In this document: positions 31,306-38,402 of the stretch, in pieces | How positions within the stretch are numbered: position 1 is the first letter of the stretch | Layout: each line of letters opens with the position of its first letter | From: a virus | Strand: one strand, 5' to 3' | Virus record (IMG/VR): IMGVR_UViG_3300029784_000281 | Length of the DNA stretch: 64,000 nucleotides | Notes under the pieces: model-generated | What the model was told of the DNA's origin: nothing | Seen by the model: only the letters and a program-made list of their open reading frames with translations | Databases searched by the model: none | Made by a program: the position numbers and the translations under genes

Positions 31306-33738
31306 ATGGACAGAGTATTACAAAGAAGAGATACGGCATCGAACTGGGCTAAGTTTAACCCTGTTCTTTCGGAAGGGGAGATAGGAATCGTCATCGACGG
31401 AGGTAAAGGTTATAAGATAGGTGATGGTGTCACACATTGGAATGATCTGGAATACCCCTCTAATCCAACCAGTGTTGTTGGCACGATCGGAGATAGCGAG
31501 GTTGCCGTGATTAACCAGAAAGGCGTATCCTCTTTGGTCGGCCTAGACACGTACCCTGTCTTCTCCGATACCAAGCCCTACGTAAAAGGCGAGATCGTTA
31601 ATTACGGCGGTCTCTTGTACGAGTTCACGGCTGATCATGAGGCGGGGGCGTGGATTGGCACGGACGTGAAAGAGACTAGTCTGAAAAATTATTTATTAAA
31701 TAACGATATAAAATTCATGTCATTCTCCGGTAAAGCATATGTTGATTTAGGGAGTATGGCTAATTATTTGAGTGATGGCAGTTTTGACAAATATATTAAT
31801 GATCCGTTATATGATTGTGTATGGGTATATATATACCCTAATTGTACAAATCTAAATATATCTGGTGCTACTCATAGTTTAATTGGGTATTTTAAAGATA
31901 TTATACCATCAACTAATAATTATTTAGGTCGTGATTTTAAAGAGAATGCGGTATTGTGTTTGATCAATCTTAAAAGATCAGAAAATCCTAATGGGTATAA
32001 TGATTTAATTATAACTCAAGATGGAGCAGGAGCAACTCGTAAATATGTTATTGATAGTATAAATAGTCATTTAAATGATTACATTTCAAAAAACAATGAA
32101 TTAGTCAATTCTACATTTTCATCTCTAAACTACAGACCTTATCAAAATATACTAAATGTAAATAGTGTTTTGAATGGATGGTCTTTAAGTGATGGGGTAT
32201 GGCTCCCTGAAAAAAACACGGTATCCTCTGATAAAATATATCTTAGAGATGGATGTATATATACTGTTCAAGGAATAAATCCTTTTAATAATAATAATAT
32301 TTATATAGCGATGTTTGATCAGATGGATAATTATATCGGCAGGTCTTTGCATCCTATTGATAATCAAGAAGAAAATAATGCATGCACTTTTAAGTTTAAA
32401 GCTTTAAAAGGTACGTCATACGTGAGATTTATTCTAAAAGGGAATGCTAACGTAGAATATAATCCCGATATTATTCAATTAGAGGTTGGAGGTATCAAAA
32501 CAAGTATAAAACAATTTTCAGGAAAGGACTTATTTGCATTAGATGATAATGATAGTTTTTTCTTGCAGCAACTACGATTAATTTCTAAAGAGAAACCTAA
32601 AGGGAAAAACTTATTAAATCCTAATGATTTAATGTATGGATATACCTTGTCATCTGGAATGGTTGTTGAACATCCACATGGCGTATTTTCCAATAGATTA
32701 TTTCTTGAAGATGGAGTAAATTACTCTTTCTCTCATATGGCTATTTATAGTAAAGATATTAAAAATTTATATTTAGCTTATTTTGACAGGAATGGTAATT
32801 TTATAAAAAGAACTAGTCACAGTCTATCATTAGAGGATGGCGATTTGTATGGTTCTGTTACGATAAAATATGTTAGTTATGGTGCTTATTTTGTTCGCGC
32901 CTTAATCCAAAGTGATGAAATAGAATCTGCAGCAGATTTAACAAAGGCTCAAATCGAACAAGGTAGTTCACCAACAGATTATGAAGAATATAAGGGTACT
33001 TCTTATGACTTGCATGCTGATTCTAATAATAATTTTGTTATTAGTAAAAATATATTACTTACTGGAGCATCCTTTGCATTTCCCGGAAATGAATGGTTCT
33101 CGCATGTAGTTAATGATTTAAATATAACAGGTTATAATAAAGCTGTGAGTGGTGAAACCATAGTACACACTGCAAATAAGATGGCTGAGGGTACTCTTTA
33201 TTCTAAGGACGAATTAGAGACATTTGATATTTTTATGATATTTCATTCTCACAATCAAGTGGTGGATGATTATGAGAACATAAAGGAAGACTATAGGGAT
33301 TATGAACTTCCTTTTGGCAACTCTGATAAGTCAATTTGCTGGGATTATGTGTTGAAAAAATATTATGCGGATTGCTATGCTCTAAAAGATGATCCATCAT
33401 CTAAATGGTATGGAACTAAAAGTGGGAAGCCTTGTATAATCGTTGTATGTACTCATTGGCATGATGCTAGAACAATTTTCAATGAGAGTATAAGGAATCT
33501 CCAGAAAAAATGGGGTTTTATACTCTGTGAGTTTGATAAAAATATAGGTTTCTCAAAAAATCAAGTCCATCCCATAACTAATGAGCAAATATCCATATTA
33601 CATGCCGATACAAAAGATGGAGGAGATACAGAGGTGATAAATGGAGTAACATATGGTTGGCATCCAACAGAATATGTTGATGCTTGGATTCAAAAAAGAA
33701 TGGCTTCAATTGTTGAAGCTGCTATTAGAAACCTATAG
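31306..33738 (+). CDS. tail fibre paralogue with the same N-terminal domain and an unrelated AT-rich C-terminal region
   Basis: The N-terminus MDRVLQRRDTASNWAKFNPVLSEGEIGIVIDGGKGYKIGDGVTHWNDLEY is paralogous to the previous gene. The C-terminal 600 aa are Asn/Tyr-rich and much lower in GC. Confidence 0.7.
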   Translation: MDRVLQRRDTASNWAKFNPVLSEGEIGIVIDGGKGYKIGDGVTHWNDLEYPSNPTSVVGTIGDSEVAVINQKGVSSLVGLDTYPVFSDTKPYVKGEIVNYGGLLYEFTADHEAGAWIGTDVKETSLKNYLLNNDIKFMSFSGKAYVDLGSMANYLSDGSFDKYINDPLYDCVWVYIYPNCTNLNISGATHSLIGYFKDIIPSTNNYLGRDFKENAVLCLINLKRSENPNGYNDLIITQDGAGATRKYVIDSINSHLNDYISKNNELVNSTFSSLNYRPYQNILNVNSVLNGWSLSDGVWLPEKNTVSSDKIYLRDGCIYTVQGINPFNNNNIYIAMFDQMDNYIGRSLHPIDNQEENNACTFKFKALKGTSYVRFILKGNANVEYNPDIIQLEVGGIKTSIKQFSGKDLFALDDNDSFFLQQLRLISKEKPKGKNLLNPNDLMYGYTLSSGMVVEHPHGVFSNRLFLEDGVNYSFSHMAIYSKDIKNLYLAYFDRNGNFIKRTSHSLSLEDGDLYGSVTIKYVSYGAYFVRALIQSDEIESAADLTKAQIEQGSSPTDYEEYKGTSYDLHADSNNNFVISKNILLTGASFAFPGNEWFSHVVNDLNITGYNKAVSGETIVHTANKMAEGTLYSKDELETFDIFMIFHSHNQVVDDYENIKEDYRDYELPFGNSDKSICWDYVLKKYYADCYALKDDPSSKWYGTKSGKPCIIVVCTHWHDARTIFNESIRNLQKKWGFILCEFDKNIGFSKNQVHPITNEQISILHADTKDGGDTEVINGVTYGWHPTEYVDAWIQKRMASIVEAAIRNL

Positions 33739-33774: not shown

Positions 33775-34266
33775 ATGTATCGCTACCTCTCCTACATATC
33801 CGACCTCGCTAACTGGGCCAAGTCCATCGCCATAGCCGCCGTAGTCACGGCGATGGACTTCGTGTCACCGATCGAGAACTTCTTGGTGGTGATCCTGTCG
33901 CTGGCCTTCATCGATACGTTCTGGGGGTTGGCTGCGGATCACGGGGATTTCCGGAAGAGCAAGTTCATCCGTAGCTGGGTGTACATGCTAGTCTATTTCC
34001 TGATCATAATCATCTCGTTCTGGATAGGCGTGATGATGGATATATCGGAGGATAACGCCAAGGCTTTCGTGTCTTGGATCACGTGGGCGATGATATGGTT
34101 TTACGGTACTAATGTCTTGAAGAACATGGGCAAGGTATTCCCGGATAACAAGGTGATAGCCTTCTTGTATTGGGTTGCCGCCGTAAAATTCATTAGTAAG
34201 GTCAATTTCTTGGATGAGTATAACAAGACAAAGAATAAAAAAGGCTCCCCAGATCCAAAAGGATAG
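33775..34266 (+). CDS. holin-like membrane protein
   Basis: 163 aa with three or four predicted TM helices, immediately upstream of the endolysin. Confidence 0.5.
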   Translation: MYRYLSYISDLANWAKSIAIAAVVTAMDFVSPIENFLVVILSLAFIDTFWGLAADHGDFRKSKFIRSWVYMLVYFLIIIISFWIGVMMDISEDNAKAFVSWITWAMIWFYGTNVLKNMGKVFPDNKVIAFLYWVAAVKFISKVNFLDEYNKTKNKKGSPDPKG

Positions 34267-34354: not shown

Positions 34355-34816
34355 ATGAGAACGATTAACAGGAAAATCAACTTGATCGTGATCCATTGTT
34401 CGGCCACTAGGGTAGATAAGGATTATACCCCTGAGCAATTAGAGAGAGACCACAAGGCGAGAGGATTCAACTCCGCGGGTTATAACTATTATATCCGGAA
34501 GAGCGGGGAGATAGTATCTATGCGTCCATTGGAATTGATTCCGGCTCATGTGACCGGATATAACAAGAATAGTATAGGAATATGCTATGAGGGTGGTCTT
34601 GATCCGGACGGGAATCCGGATGATACACGTACGGAGGCACAGAGACAGTCGATTATAAGGCTGTTGTTGGATTTGGTCGTACAGTTCCCGGATAGTAGGA
34701 TCTGCGGTCATCGTGACCTATCCCCGGATCTTAACGGTAACGGTAAGATTGAACCGGACGAGTGGATGAAGATGTGTCCATGTTTTAATGCCGAGGAGGA
34801 GTATCGCAATATATGA
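34355..34816 (+). CDS. endolysin, N-acetylmuramoyl-L-alanine amidase (Amidase_2/PGRP fold)
   Basis: IVIHCSAT, GYNYYI and NSIGICYEGG motifs are typical of the Amidase_2 zinc amidase family. Confidence 0.8.
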   Translation: MRTINRKINLIVIHCSATRVDKDYTPEQLERDHKARGFNSAGYNYYIRKSGEIVSMRPLELIPAHVTGYNKNSIGICYEGGLDPDGNPDDTRTEAQRQSIIRLLLDLVVQFPDSRICGHRDLSPDLNGNGKIEPDEWMKMCPCFNAEEEYRNI

Positions 34817-35579: not shown

Positions 35580-35876
35580 ATGAATAAGGTGGAAATTTTT
35601 TACAAAAAAGTGATAGAGGCTGTCTGCAAGGAGTGCGGAACCGATCCGGTAATGATGTTTAGCAACAATAAGGAGAGGAGCGTTGACGCTAGGGGAGTGG
35701 CTATAACCATACTGGCCGATCGCAAGTTGAGCGACAATATCATATCCGATCTGACGGGGATGACGAGGCAAGCCGTGAACCGGATGCGTAATTTGTATCC
35801 GGACAGGATAAGGAGGAGTTACTATCTGAGAAGAACGGTGGAGAGCGTCAAAGAGGAGCTATCCGGTACGGTCTGA
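35580..35876 (+). CDS. small HTH DNA-binding protein (DnaA-C/TrpR-like)
   Basis: SVDARGVAITILADRKLSDNIISDLTGMTRQAVNRM looks like an HTH. Preferred over the antisense ORF 35475-35771. Confidence 0.4.
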   Translation: MNKVEIFYKKVIEAVCKECGTDPVMMFSNNKERSVDARGVAITILADRKLSDNIISDLTGMTRQAVNRMRNLYPDRIRRSYYLRRTVESVKEELSGTV

Positions 35877-35993
35877 GGGTGCGTTATGTTGTAAGACATG
35901 TGATTTGTCTATGAAAAAATTTTCATATAACAAAATTTTTTGCGACATTTGCGGCGTAAAAGGTGATTTTGTAGCCTCGTCAAGTAACCAGCC

Positions 35994-36929
35994 TTGGCAG
36001 AGGCTTTGTTGTATACGAAAAGTTTCATTATGGAAATATATATGCCACATGCGGTAAATGATATTAGGATAGGAGAAGCCTTCAATCATCTATTCAGGAT
36101 AATCCTGAAAATGGAGAATTCCGATGATGATGATTTCATATGGAACTTCCAATATACGGCATTTGTGACTCCATTTTTCTTATTGCCTCTTATGCTTTAT
36201 AGAGATAAGTGCGGTAAGAATGTGGTTTGCAAGAATATATCGGACAGTGTTAAAAGCTATCTGGACTCTATTCATTTTGAAGGAGGTGTAGTAGCTGACA
36301 GTGTTAGTGATTTTCATAATTATATGGAATATTTTTCTATGAAAAAATATATTCCTATAATAAAGTTCCCGGGATGTAAAAGCAAGGATAGCATAAAAAA
36401 CGATATACTATCTGTAGCAGAGAATATAATGATAAGGCAATTAAATATTGAAGGAGAGTTGAGAAAGGCTTTATCTTATATGCTGACTGAGACGATTGAC
36501 AATATATCTGAACATTCAGAGAGTGAATTTGGTTATATATTTGCTCAGTATTATCCGTCAAAGAGTTATATAGACATTTGCATAGCGGATAATGGTATAA
36601 GTATACTGGGTAGTTATGTTAAGTCTGGCAAGGGAGGTATAACTAACGATGTGGAGGCTTTAAAAAGCGCGGGAAAGGGTATATCGACTAAAAATTTACC
36701 AGATACCGAGAATCGTGGTTATGGTATAAGTACTTGCAAGAGAATGTTGTCTAAGGGACTTGGAGGAACATATTTTTTGCTGTCTGGGCAAGCGTTTCAT
36801 CTTATGTCAGAGGAAGAGACATCATATATAGGACTTCCTGATTATATAAAATGGGATGGAACTATAGTGGCATTAAGGATACCATATAAAGAGGAAAGGA
36901 TGTTTAATTTTTATGAATATTTAGAATGA
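35994..36929 (+). CDS. GHKL/HATPase_c-type ATPase, an anti-sigma-factor-like kinase domain protein
   Basis: Bergerat-fold motifs: N-box LTETIDNISEH, G1 ICIADNGISILG and G2 ENRGYGISTCKRM. The true start may be an internal Met (MEIYM or MPHAV). Confidence 0.6.
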   Translation: MAEALLYTKSFIMEIYMPHAVNDIRIGEAFNHLFRIILKMENSDDDDFIWNFQYTAFVTPFFLLPLMLYRDKCGKNVVCKNISDSVKSYLDSIHFEGGVVADSVSDFHNYMEYFSMKKYIPIIKFPGCKSKDSIKNDILSVAENIMIRQLNIEGELRKALSYMLTETIDNISEHSESEFGYIFAQYYPSKSYIDICIADNGISILGSYVKSGKGGITNDVEALKSAGKGISTKNLPDTENRGYGISTCKRMLSKGLGGTYFLLSGQAFHLMSEEETSYIGLPDYIKWDGTIVALRIPYKEERMFNFYEYLE

Positions 36930-37285
36930 AGATCATGGAAAAGACAATTGTGATATCAGAATTGATAAGGGGAGAGCTTCGTTCTAGGACAGAAGCTAAA
37001 AAAATCTATATAAGGGCTAAGGATTTGAATAGCCCATGTGTACGTATAGATTTTAAGGATGTATATTTTATGTCTCGATCATTTGCGGATGAGTTATGCA
37101 ATACAATAGAGGCTTTGGCCTTGGATAAAGTGAGGGTCTCTATGGAGAATGAGAGCGACTCTATAGATCTGATGATGAAAATAGTAAAAGGTAATAGAAA
37201 TAAACCGAGGAATATGCATGAGGACAGTGAGGTTAAAGAATTTTCGGACATGGATTCATTGTCAGAGTTCCTGTCTACCATATAA
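36926..37285 (+). CDS. small STAS-like (anti-sigma-antagonist-like, DUF4325-type) protein, translationally coupled to the upstream ATPase
   Basis: ATGA stop/start overlap with the GHKL gene. The 119-aa profile (IVISELIRGELRSRTEAKKIYIRAKDLNSPCVRIDFKDVYFMSRSFADEL) resembles STAS-fold antagonists. The assignment is by pattern only. Confidence 0.45.
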   Translation: MKIMEKTIVISELIRGELRSRTEAKKIYIRAKDLNSPCVRIDFKDVYFMSRSFADELCNTIEALALDKVRVSMENESDSIDLMMKIVKGNRNKPRNMHEDSEVKEFSDMDSLSEFLSTI

Positions 37286-37517
37286 AATTATTTCATGCTA
37301 TATAAAAGAGAATGATATGAAAAATTTAGATGAAAAAATAGCTAAGGAGTATAATGAATTCCTAGAAAGGAATAGTTTTGATAAATACTCAGATAGAAAA
37401 AACATATATCTAGTCCAAACACGCTACAATGCATGTATTGGAAACAGCCTTGCATAAATTAGGAGAAGAATTATTGGCTATAAATTTATAATTAACCGCT
37501 ATCCTTATGCTTCCTAT

Positions 37518-37546
37518 GGCCCCCAAAAATCTGGGGGCTTTTTTTG
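37518..37546 (+). terminator. strong intrinsic terminator
   Basis: GGCCCCCaaaaatcTGGGGGC followed by TTTTTTT. Confidence 0.65.
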
Positions 37547-37679
37547 TCTCATTCCCTTCCGCAAAGAACTAGCAACAACCTCGCAACAAGCTAGCAAGGA
37601 GATATTTATTTAGCAAGGCACTTCTCTGGATTTTTGTGGTGTCCGGGATAACCCGGAATAACCATAAAATTCATGATAT

Positions 37680-38402
37680 ATGGAAGCAGAGAAAATTATT
37701 AAGGAGAAAGAGATCGTCCATGAGGATGAGCACAAGGATTACGCAAGCAAGGGCGTGGGTAACGCCGGCTTGACATTGGGTATCATTGGTACGGCTCTTG
37801 GAGCTTGGGCGGTGTCACGTAACCGTGGCGGCTTGTTCGGCGGTGGCTGGGGAGCCGGTATGCCAGAGAACGTTAACATCAACACGACCACAGGAGGCGG
37901 TGGTGGTTCCGGGGTAGGCGCTCCGACTGCGTTCATGGCTTGGGAAAAGGGCTGTGAGGAGGCGTTATCGCTTACAAACGCAATGTGGGGATTGAAAGTC
38001 TCAGGTATGCAAGCCGATTACGATCACCGCCAGACGGATATCGCCGAGAAATTCGCCTTGTGGAAGTCACAGGTAGACGCTGATTTCGGATTGTACAAGT
38101 CACAGGTAGACGCTGATTTTGGTCTATACAAGAACCAAAGAGACCAGTTCGATGTCTTGAAGGCTCAGATCGATGAATTGAGGTGTCAGGTGGCTGTAGG
38201 TTCGGCGATTCGTCCTTACCAAGACAAGTTGCTTCAATGCGAGATCGAGAAGGCGTTCACGGCTAGTGTCAATTACACCGATCGTAGAACCTGCCGTATG
38301 ATCACGGGAGAATTGGTATTGCCAAATACCCCTACGGTAACAGGCTATCCTAGCTACAATCCGTGCTCATGCCCGGCATCCGCTCCGGCACCTACGGCTT
38401 AA
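37680..38402 (+). CDS. glycine-rich protein with one TM segment and an internal repeat
   Basis: GGGGGSG tracts. Internal duplication WKSQVDADFGLYKSQVDADFGLYKNQ. C-terminal Cys-Pro-rich tail. Confidence 0.5.
   Translation: MEAEKIIKEKEIVHEDEHKDYASKGVGNAGLTLGIIGTALGAWAVSRNRGGLFGGGWGAGMPENVNINTTTGGGGGSGVGAPTAFMAWEKGCEEALSLTNAMWGLKVSGMQADYDHRQTDIAEKFALWKSQVDADFGLYKSQVDADFGLYKNQRDQFDVLKAQIDELRCQVAVGSAIRPYQDKLLQCEIEKAFTASVNYTDRRTCRMITGELVLPNTPTVTGYPSYNPCSCPASAPAPTA

Follow-up and report, generated by a model that had tools for sequence, protein, structure and literature searches.

Switches built from a GHKL kinase and a STAS-domain protein have been known as a kind of immune system since 2026, and they were described only with an attached output, which is either a winged helix-turn-helix (wHTH) repressor or a PIN toxin (Chambers et al., EMBO J 2026, PMC13373217). 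CapK, composed of helix-turn-helix (HTH), STAS and GHKL domains, is switched on by single-stranded DNA (ssDNA) and phosphorylates a conserved serine on helix α2 of CapS, a STAS-wHTH repressor whose phosphorylation de-represses adjacent immune operons (PMC13373217). VapK, with STAS and GHKL domains, phosphorylates VapS, a STAS domain followed by a short C-terminal helix that acts as the antitoxin of the PIN toxin VapC; the VapKSC system protects E. coli against a phage, and this protection was abolished by mutation of VapK F54, equivalent to CapK W68, a predicted ssDNA-stacking residue (PMC13373217). The subject of this work is a pair of genes found in a stretch of 64,000 nucleotides from the IMG/VR virus record IMGVR_UViG_3300029784_000281 (hereafter the window, to which all plain positions refer): gene A, the putative kinase gene (K), and gene B, which encodes its putative STAS partner (S). 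GenBank already labels such genes as 'ATP-binding protein' and 'DUF4325 domain-containing protein'. The pair is read here, at about even confidence, as a self-contained and horizontally mobile kinase-substrate switch of the CapK/CapS–VapK/VapS type that lacks the known output modules and may play a toxin-antitoxin (TA)-like or defence role for the prophage carrying it. The new elements are an output-less two-gene clade, its breadth over Bacteroidales, phages and archaea, and its occurrence as a swappable prophage cassette at a hot-spot for TA and defence modules.

Protein A is firmly predicted, from sequence and structural model, to join a STAS-like domain at its N-terminus to a GHKL kinase domain of the SpoIIAB/RsbW type and to be competent as a kinase. 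An earlier note on this DNA, made from the letters alone, had pointed out the N, G1 and G2 boxes of the Bergerat fold, and their residues E150, N154, H158, D183, G185, R225, G226 and G228 are indeed invariant in 80 non-redundant homologues, as are S215, K217, G239, G242, S248, G249, G273 and T274 (residues of protein A are numbered in its 295-aa form, from ATG 36042). Single-sequence scans against Pfam and NCBIfam gave sub-threshold matches or none, including HATPase_c_2 at E=0.21 for A alone, and all family members were scanned instead; 17/45 homologues of A then match HATPase_c and 8/45 match HATPase_c_2. The AlphaFold model of A (predicted local distance difference test, pLDDT, 88.7) has GHKL proteins as its only Foldseek matches, the structures nearest to the kinase domain being SpoIIAB, RsbW and UsfX, and a comparison of the A-family profile with PDB sequences gave nothing meaningful. 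The N-terminal domain is homologous to protein B itself (hhalign 92%, E=6e-7). The RsbW/SpoIIAB-type kinase named in the earlier note is therefore right as to the GHKL anti-sigma-type fold, but A has a STAS-like domain of its own at the N-terminus, so it is better described as CapK/VapK-type.

Protein B is firmly predicted, on the same two kinds of evidence, to be a STAS domain with a short C-terminal helix, in agreement with the STAS-like profile first ascribed to this 119-aa protein. B alone reaches the DUF4325 family (PF14213) at E=0.004 and 17.2 bits, below the 23-bit gathering score; 36/45 of its homologues match DUF4325 (best E=5.8e-7) and 5/45 match STAS. The searches that the note had proposed thus give matches to HATPase_c and DUF4325 at the level of the families, but the single sequences stay sub-threshold. 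The model of B (pLDDT 90.9) has a β-α-β-α-β-α topology followed by a linker and, at residues 109-118, a C-terminal helix, and its top structural matches are STAS domains, such as the SLC26 STAS domain, RsbS, stressosome proteins, RsbV and SpoIIAA. Judged by profiles and models together, A belongs to the GHKL (Bergerat) superfamily and B to the STAS/DUF4325 group. The B family carries the signature D-F-x-x-V-x-F-x-[S/T]50-R51-S52-F53-x-D55-E56, with serine at position 50 in 39 and threonine in 41 of 80 homologues, and with R51, S52, F53, D55 and E56 invariant. Because position 50 holds hydroxyl residues only and lies at the N-terminus of helix α2, S50 is the predicted phospho-acceptor of B.

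On sequence comparison, VapKSC and CapKS are the closest known systems, since the full length of A can be aligned with VapK and with a Deinococcus kinase; A and B are distant homologues that share the VapK/VapS architecture. The A profile aligns with Escherichia VapK, whose sequence was taken from the AlphaFold 3 (AF3) model file of Chambers et al., over 253 colinear columns (hhalign 89%, E=2e-6), and the same profile matches the kinase encoded in a K/S/PIN operon of Deinococcus gobiensis (hhalign 96.6%, E=7e-10). That operon, found on plasmid P5 (L172:2027-4379), is vapKSC-like, with HTH, ATP-binding kinase, STAS-like and PIN genes in this order; small phage-like genes and GIY-YIG nucleases surround it. 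As in VapKSC, the kinase of the pair has about 300 aa, a STAS and a GHKL domain and no HTH, the partner has about 116-119 aa, in which a STAS domain is followed by a short C-terminal helix, and the K gene precedes the S gene in tight coupling. The best match of the B profile among 177,635 PDB sequences is VapS (9z7o_A), a weak one (E=0.096), and the profile alignment places VapS Ser48 (F-A-S48-P-F-F) on the conserved S/T at position 50 of B. The equivalent of VapK F54 and CapK W68 falls on F41 of A, which is phenylalanine in 67/80 homologues and which, by analogy, may have a role in binding ssDNA. On the other hand, the B family has an invariant R-S-F-x-D-E where VapS has S-P-F-F, the overall similarity of B to VapS is marginal, the pair here is carried by a temperate phage, and there is no VapC or PIN gene in the window or in 83 non-redundant homologous loci; in the window, a 46-aa open reading frame (ORF) and a terminator come after B, so that a VapC-like third gene is missing. 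The comparison with CapK/CapS runs in a similar way. In both, the GHKL kinase includes a STAS domain of its own and the STAS-domain partner is encoded immediately downstream, but A starts directly with its STAS-like domain and does not have the N-terminal HTH of CapK, B does not have the C-terminal wHTH of CapS and shows only a linker and one helix after the STAS domain, and no immune operon lies downstream, where a terminator is found instead and where the neighbours at the 83 loci are heterogeneous and mostly housekeeping genes.

The two genes are found together without exception. B lies directly 3' of A in 162/162 homologous loci that have DNA beyond A, as an ORF of 111-137 aa on the same strand, and in nearly all of these the gap between A and B is -4 to +34 nt; the two co-directional ORFs of the window overlap by ATGA, just as the earlier note described. 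All 86 distinct downstream products match B (phmmer, E<=1.4e-7), and the pairwise distances of A and B are correlated (r=0.92), with B evolving somewhat faster. The ratio of non-synonymous to synonymous polymorphism (pN/pS) is about 0.2 for A and about 0.2-0.27 across A and B, which indicates purifying selection on both genes; this ratio was used because synonymous divergence (dS) is saturated and dN/dS is not meaningful. The A family comprises 384 clusters at 50% identity for E<=1e-30 and 5,167 for E<=1e-3, and the closer relatives sampled are mostly found in Bacteroidales chromosomes, while a tblastn search of A against plasmids gave only distant, differently organised and uninformative relatives. 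By its sequence distribution the pair is thus a widespread stand-alone cassette of Bacteroidales chromosomes and archaea without phage specificity, a point that the earlier note had missed.

The two partners differ in one respect: A was never seen without B in the 162 loci, and B-like proteins occur alone. Two independent frameshift alleles of A are also known, A6→A5 at 36395 (four contigs from at least three datasets) and ΔG at 36263 (one contig), in contigs L070-L074 and L204, and B is intact in all 24 distinct alleles. With two independent events, and with A being 2.5 times longer than B, the asymmetry of the A-null alleles is statistically not significant, and together with the difference in occurrence it offers weak hints that A may be the costly partner and B the antidote. 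Kinase-less B-like STAS proteins are encoded by common gut Bacteroidales, for instance Barnesiella intestinihominis (loci L255-L260), and some of their genes directly abut a DUF6922 gene (e.g. L258:3641-4372); such genes suggest that the STAS protein has partners independent of the kinase.

In the phage, the pair is one of several cargos of a single site. The phage is a temperate Bacteroides phage, as read from its relative, Bacteroides phage BF1-TP2 (host B. fragilis), which is 96% identical in this region and encodes a tyrosine recombinase (integrase), a repressor and an anti-repressor. Through the backbone gene at 37680-38402, downstream of the slot, 80 related IMG/VR phage contigs were gathered; the pair is present in 31/80 of them and absent at the same site from 43 that have enough upstream DNA (74 informative contigs). 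Homology with phages that carry other cargos reaches as far as 35979 (36007 in one case) and starts again at 37299/37300 (37437-37585 with some cargos), and the exchanged unit of about 1.3 kb consists of A and B plus a leader of about 50 nt; its G+C content is 32-37%, against 42-54% in the flanks. The hypervariable slot spans 35877-37600, between a 98-aa HTH-like gene and the gene at 37680, and at least six alternatives for its content occur among sister phages (example loci L174, L184, L191, L193, L225, L239 and L177). These are HicA (PF07927, E=3e-19) together with a HicB-like protein, three pairs in which SocA/Panacea antitoxins (E=3.6e-23 and 1.3e-9) are combined with varying partners, a RosmerTA module (PADLOC RmrA, E=5.5e-60), a pair of 422-aa and 71-aa proteins (L184:5315-6804) with no Pfam or PADLOC match, and an empty 105-nt junction. 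The 422-aa and 71-aa proteins are a candidate new TA or defence pair in their own right. From these sequences, the site is a cargo hot-spot that holds TA and defence modules in related phages, and the HTH-like gene, the 46-aa ORF and the terminator are conserved flanks of the slot that lie outside the module. The moron position assigned to the pair is thereby confirmed, with some corrections to its surroundings: the strong terminator at 37518-37546 was found but forms part of the conserved slot flank and does not belong to the module, and the small upstream HTH gene exists but is a phage backbone gene outside the cassette, with variants of 95-99% and 47% identity among related phages.

Capture of the pair as prophage cargo is recurrent, as two further prophages indicate. 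The same pair makes up ORFB and ORFC of the 'inserted fragment IFa' of the archaeal (Methanothermobacter) prophage psiM100 (hhalign 99.5% and 98.6%), a fragment that is absent from psiM2, and a 293-aa protein with a DUF4325 partner adjoins the CI repressor of the Francisella prophage KIRK. The psiM100 pair is located at L253:2183-3314 and is followed by a 492-aa ORFD; IFa has long been unexplained. In BF1-TP2, gp43 is 99.7% identical to A (tblastn) and gp42 is the adjacent DUF4325 gene. Both psiM100 ORFB/ORFC and BF1-TP2 gp43/gp42 are direct homologues of the pair and accessory inserts in phages or prophages, and their annotations, hypothetical, ATP-binding or DUF4325 protein, go no further and assign no function.

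By homology with the known switches, a mechanism can be proposed in which unphosphorylated S, in the resting state, would use its STAS face and C-terminal helix to hold a partner, this partner being either K itself or a protein of the cell or phage encoded outside the cassette. A stress or infection cue would then activate K; by analogy with CapK and VapK, this cue may be ssDNA, which would bind around F41 in the groove that separates the STAS domain from the GHKL domain. Activated K would phosphorylate S at S/T50, at the start of STAS helix α2, and the altered binding of phosphorylated B would free the partner and flip the output. The most likely role is that of a TA-like conflict module of the prophage, which would provide defence against superinfecting phages, addiction of the lysogen, or both. 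An abortive-infection or superinfection-exclusion type of role, as the earlier note had offered, fits the context of the slot. The HicAB, PanA-type and RosmerTA cassettes that occupy the same slot in sister phages are likewise small, autonomous and mobile two-gene units, and the pair resembles two-gene TA cassettes also in its asymmetry, as the second component can stand alone and the first never does; unlike them, it has no recognisable toxin domain. A bolder proposal, and a rather doubtful one, is that the PIN-less pair is in itself a complete two-component TA or abortive-infection system of a new type, triggered by ssDNA and spread over gut Bacteroidales, temperate phages and archaea. The effector of such a system might be the GHKL kinase, which would then arrest growth, acting as a promiscuous Ser/Thr kinase or by sequestering its target, or else a phosphorylation-gated STAS protein, two options that even taken together are put forward just as tentatively.

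Several observations weigh against the switch with a TA-like or defence role. An output component was not found, as no PIN toxin and no conserved neighbour is present at the 83 loci and B has no DNA-binding domain. The surroundings of chromosomal copies are mostly housekeeping genes, not recognisable defence islands. The similarity between B and VapS is weak, at the E value given above, and hhalign gives a probability of 3% for B and the Deinococcus VapS-like protein. B-like proteins with a T-R-S-F-x-D-E motif exist without a nearby kinase gene, so that the function of B does not strictly depend on A. No PADLOC model exists for A or B and no system-level match was obtained there, and the Bacteroides -7 promoter motif (TAnnTTTG) does not occur within 35877-36042, upstream of A. 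A survey of the neighbours is in line with the first two points: no third gene family occurs in more than 7/83 non-redundant loci, the neighbours being heterogeneous and those downstream mostly housekeeping genes, no enrichment of defence genes was seen around these loci, and the families listed for 131 downstream neighbours include no PIN, sigma-factor or PP2C family.

The strongest of the rival explanations, itself unlikely, is classical anti-sigma partner switching for host takeover, in which A would silence a sigma factor of the host or of a rival phage in the manner of SpoIIAB or RsbW, and B would release it and then be phosphorylated. The kinase domain does have its nearest structures in SpoIIAB, RsbW and UsfX, B has the fold of a STAS antagonist and a hydroxyl residue where helix α2 begins, and a harmful A would fit the finding that A never occurs without B, that B-like proteins occur alone and that natural A-null alleles retain an intact B. 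However, a sigma factor or PP2C phosphatase is linked to the pair in 0/83 loci, and the host sigma-factor target once suggested for this module is accordingly not supported. In contrast to SpoIIAB/SpoIIAA and RsbW/RsbV, A bears an additional STAS domain at the N-terminus, a feature typical of CapK and VapK, whose substrates are STAS proteins and not sigma factors (PMC13373217), and the pair forms a mobile stand-alone cassette that is present in many Bacteroidales chromosomes and also in archaea, which have no sigma factors.

Slightly less probable still is a CapKS-like transcriptional control, with B, alone or by way of a partner, repressing neighbouring phage genes, for instance those for the lysis–lysogeny decision or the late functions, and A, activated by DNA damage, relieving this repression, so that the pair would be a RecA-independent sensor for induction. 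CapK and CapS control adjacent operons in just this way (PMC13373217), the phage is temperate, and a block of genes in the same orientation lies downstream of the cassette. Against this, B consists of a STAS domain and one helix and has neither a wHTH nor another DNA-binding domain, the genes further downstream are cut off from the pair by a strong terminator, the neighbours of the chromosomal copies are unrelated, and more than half of the close phages do without the pair or carry a TA module instead, which argues against a core regulatory circuit.

An anti-defence decoy, by which a phage protein similar to VapS or CapS, along with the kinase, would titrate or mis-regulate the kinase–STAS immune switches of the host, is more improbable again. 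Antitoxin mimics are often carried by phages, and the homology of the pair to components of immune switches and its location in an accessory slot would suit such a role. Nevertheless, the phage pair shows the same architecture and motifs as the chromosomal cassettes, with purifying selection on both genes, PIN- or wHTH-linked relatives were not seen in the Bacteroidales loci examined, and the alternative cargos are complete TA or defence systems and not lone antitoxins; the anti-defence switch considered in the earlier note is for the first of these reasons unlikely. Finally, conserved virion or morphogenesis proteins, or a chance pair of ORFs, might be expected from the position between the lysis genes and further late-region genes, but this explanation is rejected on presence/absence and fold data, as the pair is absent from 43/74 informative related phages, is common in bacterial chromosomes, shows the folds of an enzyme and of a STAS domain along with catalytic residues that are invariant, and is under purifying selection.

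For the preferred kinase-substrate switch, the findings outline a large conserved clade that moves as a precise two-gene cassette without a recognisable output and that has repeatedly become cargo of temperate phages in a major genus of the human gut and of an archaeal prophage. They raise the question of what a phosphorylated STAS protein would control when no effector is encoded beside it. Sister phages that differ only in the slot are a tractable natural experiment, and the slot as a whole is a natural panel of prophage-borne TA and defence cargo in Bacteroides. Its study could reveal prophage-encoded defence or addiction in this genus, where few such systems have been characterised.

The features of the locus are collected in Table 1. 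The earlier note let A begin at TTG 35994. The homologues and the GenBank annotation of BF1-TP2 begin with MEIYMPHAV (ATG 36030, 299 aa) or MPHAV (ATG 36042, 295 aa), and homology with other-cargo phages runs to 35979; the TTG is therefore an unlikely start, and translation probably begins at one of the two ATG codons.

Table 1. Features of the A/B cassette and of the slot around it (positions in the window).
Feature	Position	Strand	Remark
Upstream backbone gene, 98 aa, weak HTH / DnaA-C-like Pfam matches, outside cassette	35580..35876	+	Beside every cargo type
Exchangeable cargo cassette (leader, A and B)	35980..37300	+	Edges of homology with other-cargo phages; low G+C
Gene A (K), STAS-like and GHKL Ser/Thr-kinase-like, 299 aa	36030..36929	+	PHROG 3364, E=3.5e-36
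STAS-like N-terminal domain of A, residues 1-112	36042..36377	+	Holds F41 and invariant P44
GHKL (Bergerat) kinase domain of A, residues 113-295	36378..36926	+	
N box of A, E150-H158 (ETIDNISEH; E150-x3-N154-x3-H158)	36489-36515	+	
G1 box of A, D183-G185 (ADNGIS; D183-x-G185)	36588-36596	+	
G2 box of A, R225-G228 (NRGYGIS; R225-G226-x-G228)	36714-36725	+	
ATGA start/stop overlap of A and B	36926..36929	+	B ATG at 36926, A TGA 36927-36929
Gene B (S), 119 aa, STAS-like (DUF4325) domain, basic linker and C-terminal helix	36926..37285	+	phrog_20761, E=4e-6
Signature of B, F48-M-S50-R51-S52-F53-A-D55-E56	37067..37093	+	S50 codon 37073-37075
Small ORF, 46 aa, right slot flank, outside cassette	37317..37457	+	Also beside Panacea-type cargos (L174, L225, L240)
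Intrinsic-terminator-like hairpin with T-run, closing the slot	37518..37546 (hairpin 37518-37539)	+	At or in the conserved right flank

A scan for sigma-70-type promoters upstream of A stayed at background level, and a weak terminator-like hairpin with a 6-bp stem lies at 35990-36005, at the left boundary of the cassette and 5' of the probable start of A.

Outside the two-gene cassettes, the STAS and GHKL module is also found fused to the C-terminus of a DEAD/ResIII helicase (P0251, 1266 aa). In PADLOC, A weakly matches part of the DrmA (DISARM) profile PDLC02567 (E=2.7e-8) and also gives a weak MTase_II match. The helicase fusion and the DrmA match hint that the module may be reused as a sensor on DNA-tracking defence proteins.

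Upstream of the slot, the phage differs from its relative in other ways as well. The megablast match to BF1-TP2 starts only at window position 33775, and the 3' two-thirds of an 810-aa tail-fibre-like gene (31800-33738), with a G+C content of only 27-34% and no counterpart in BF1-TP2, look like a swapped receptor-binding module. The lysis cassette appears to be a mosaic: the window encodes an Amidase_2-type endolysin (34355-34816), and BF1-TP2 and most related contigs have a different endolysin and a DUF2829 gene in its place.

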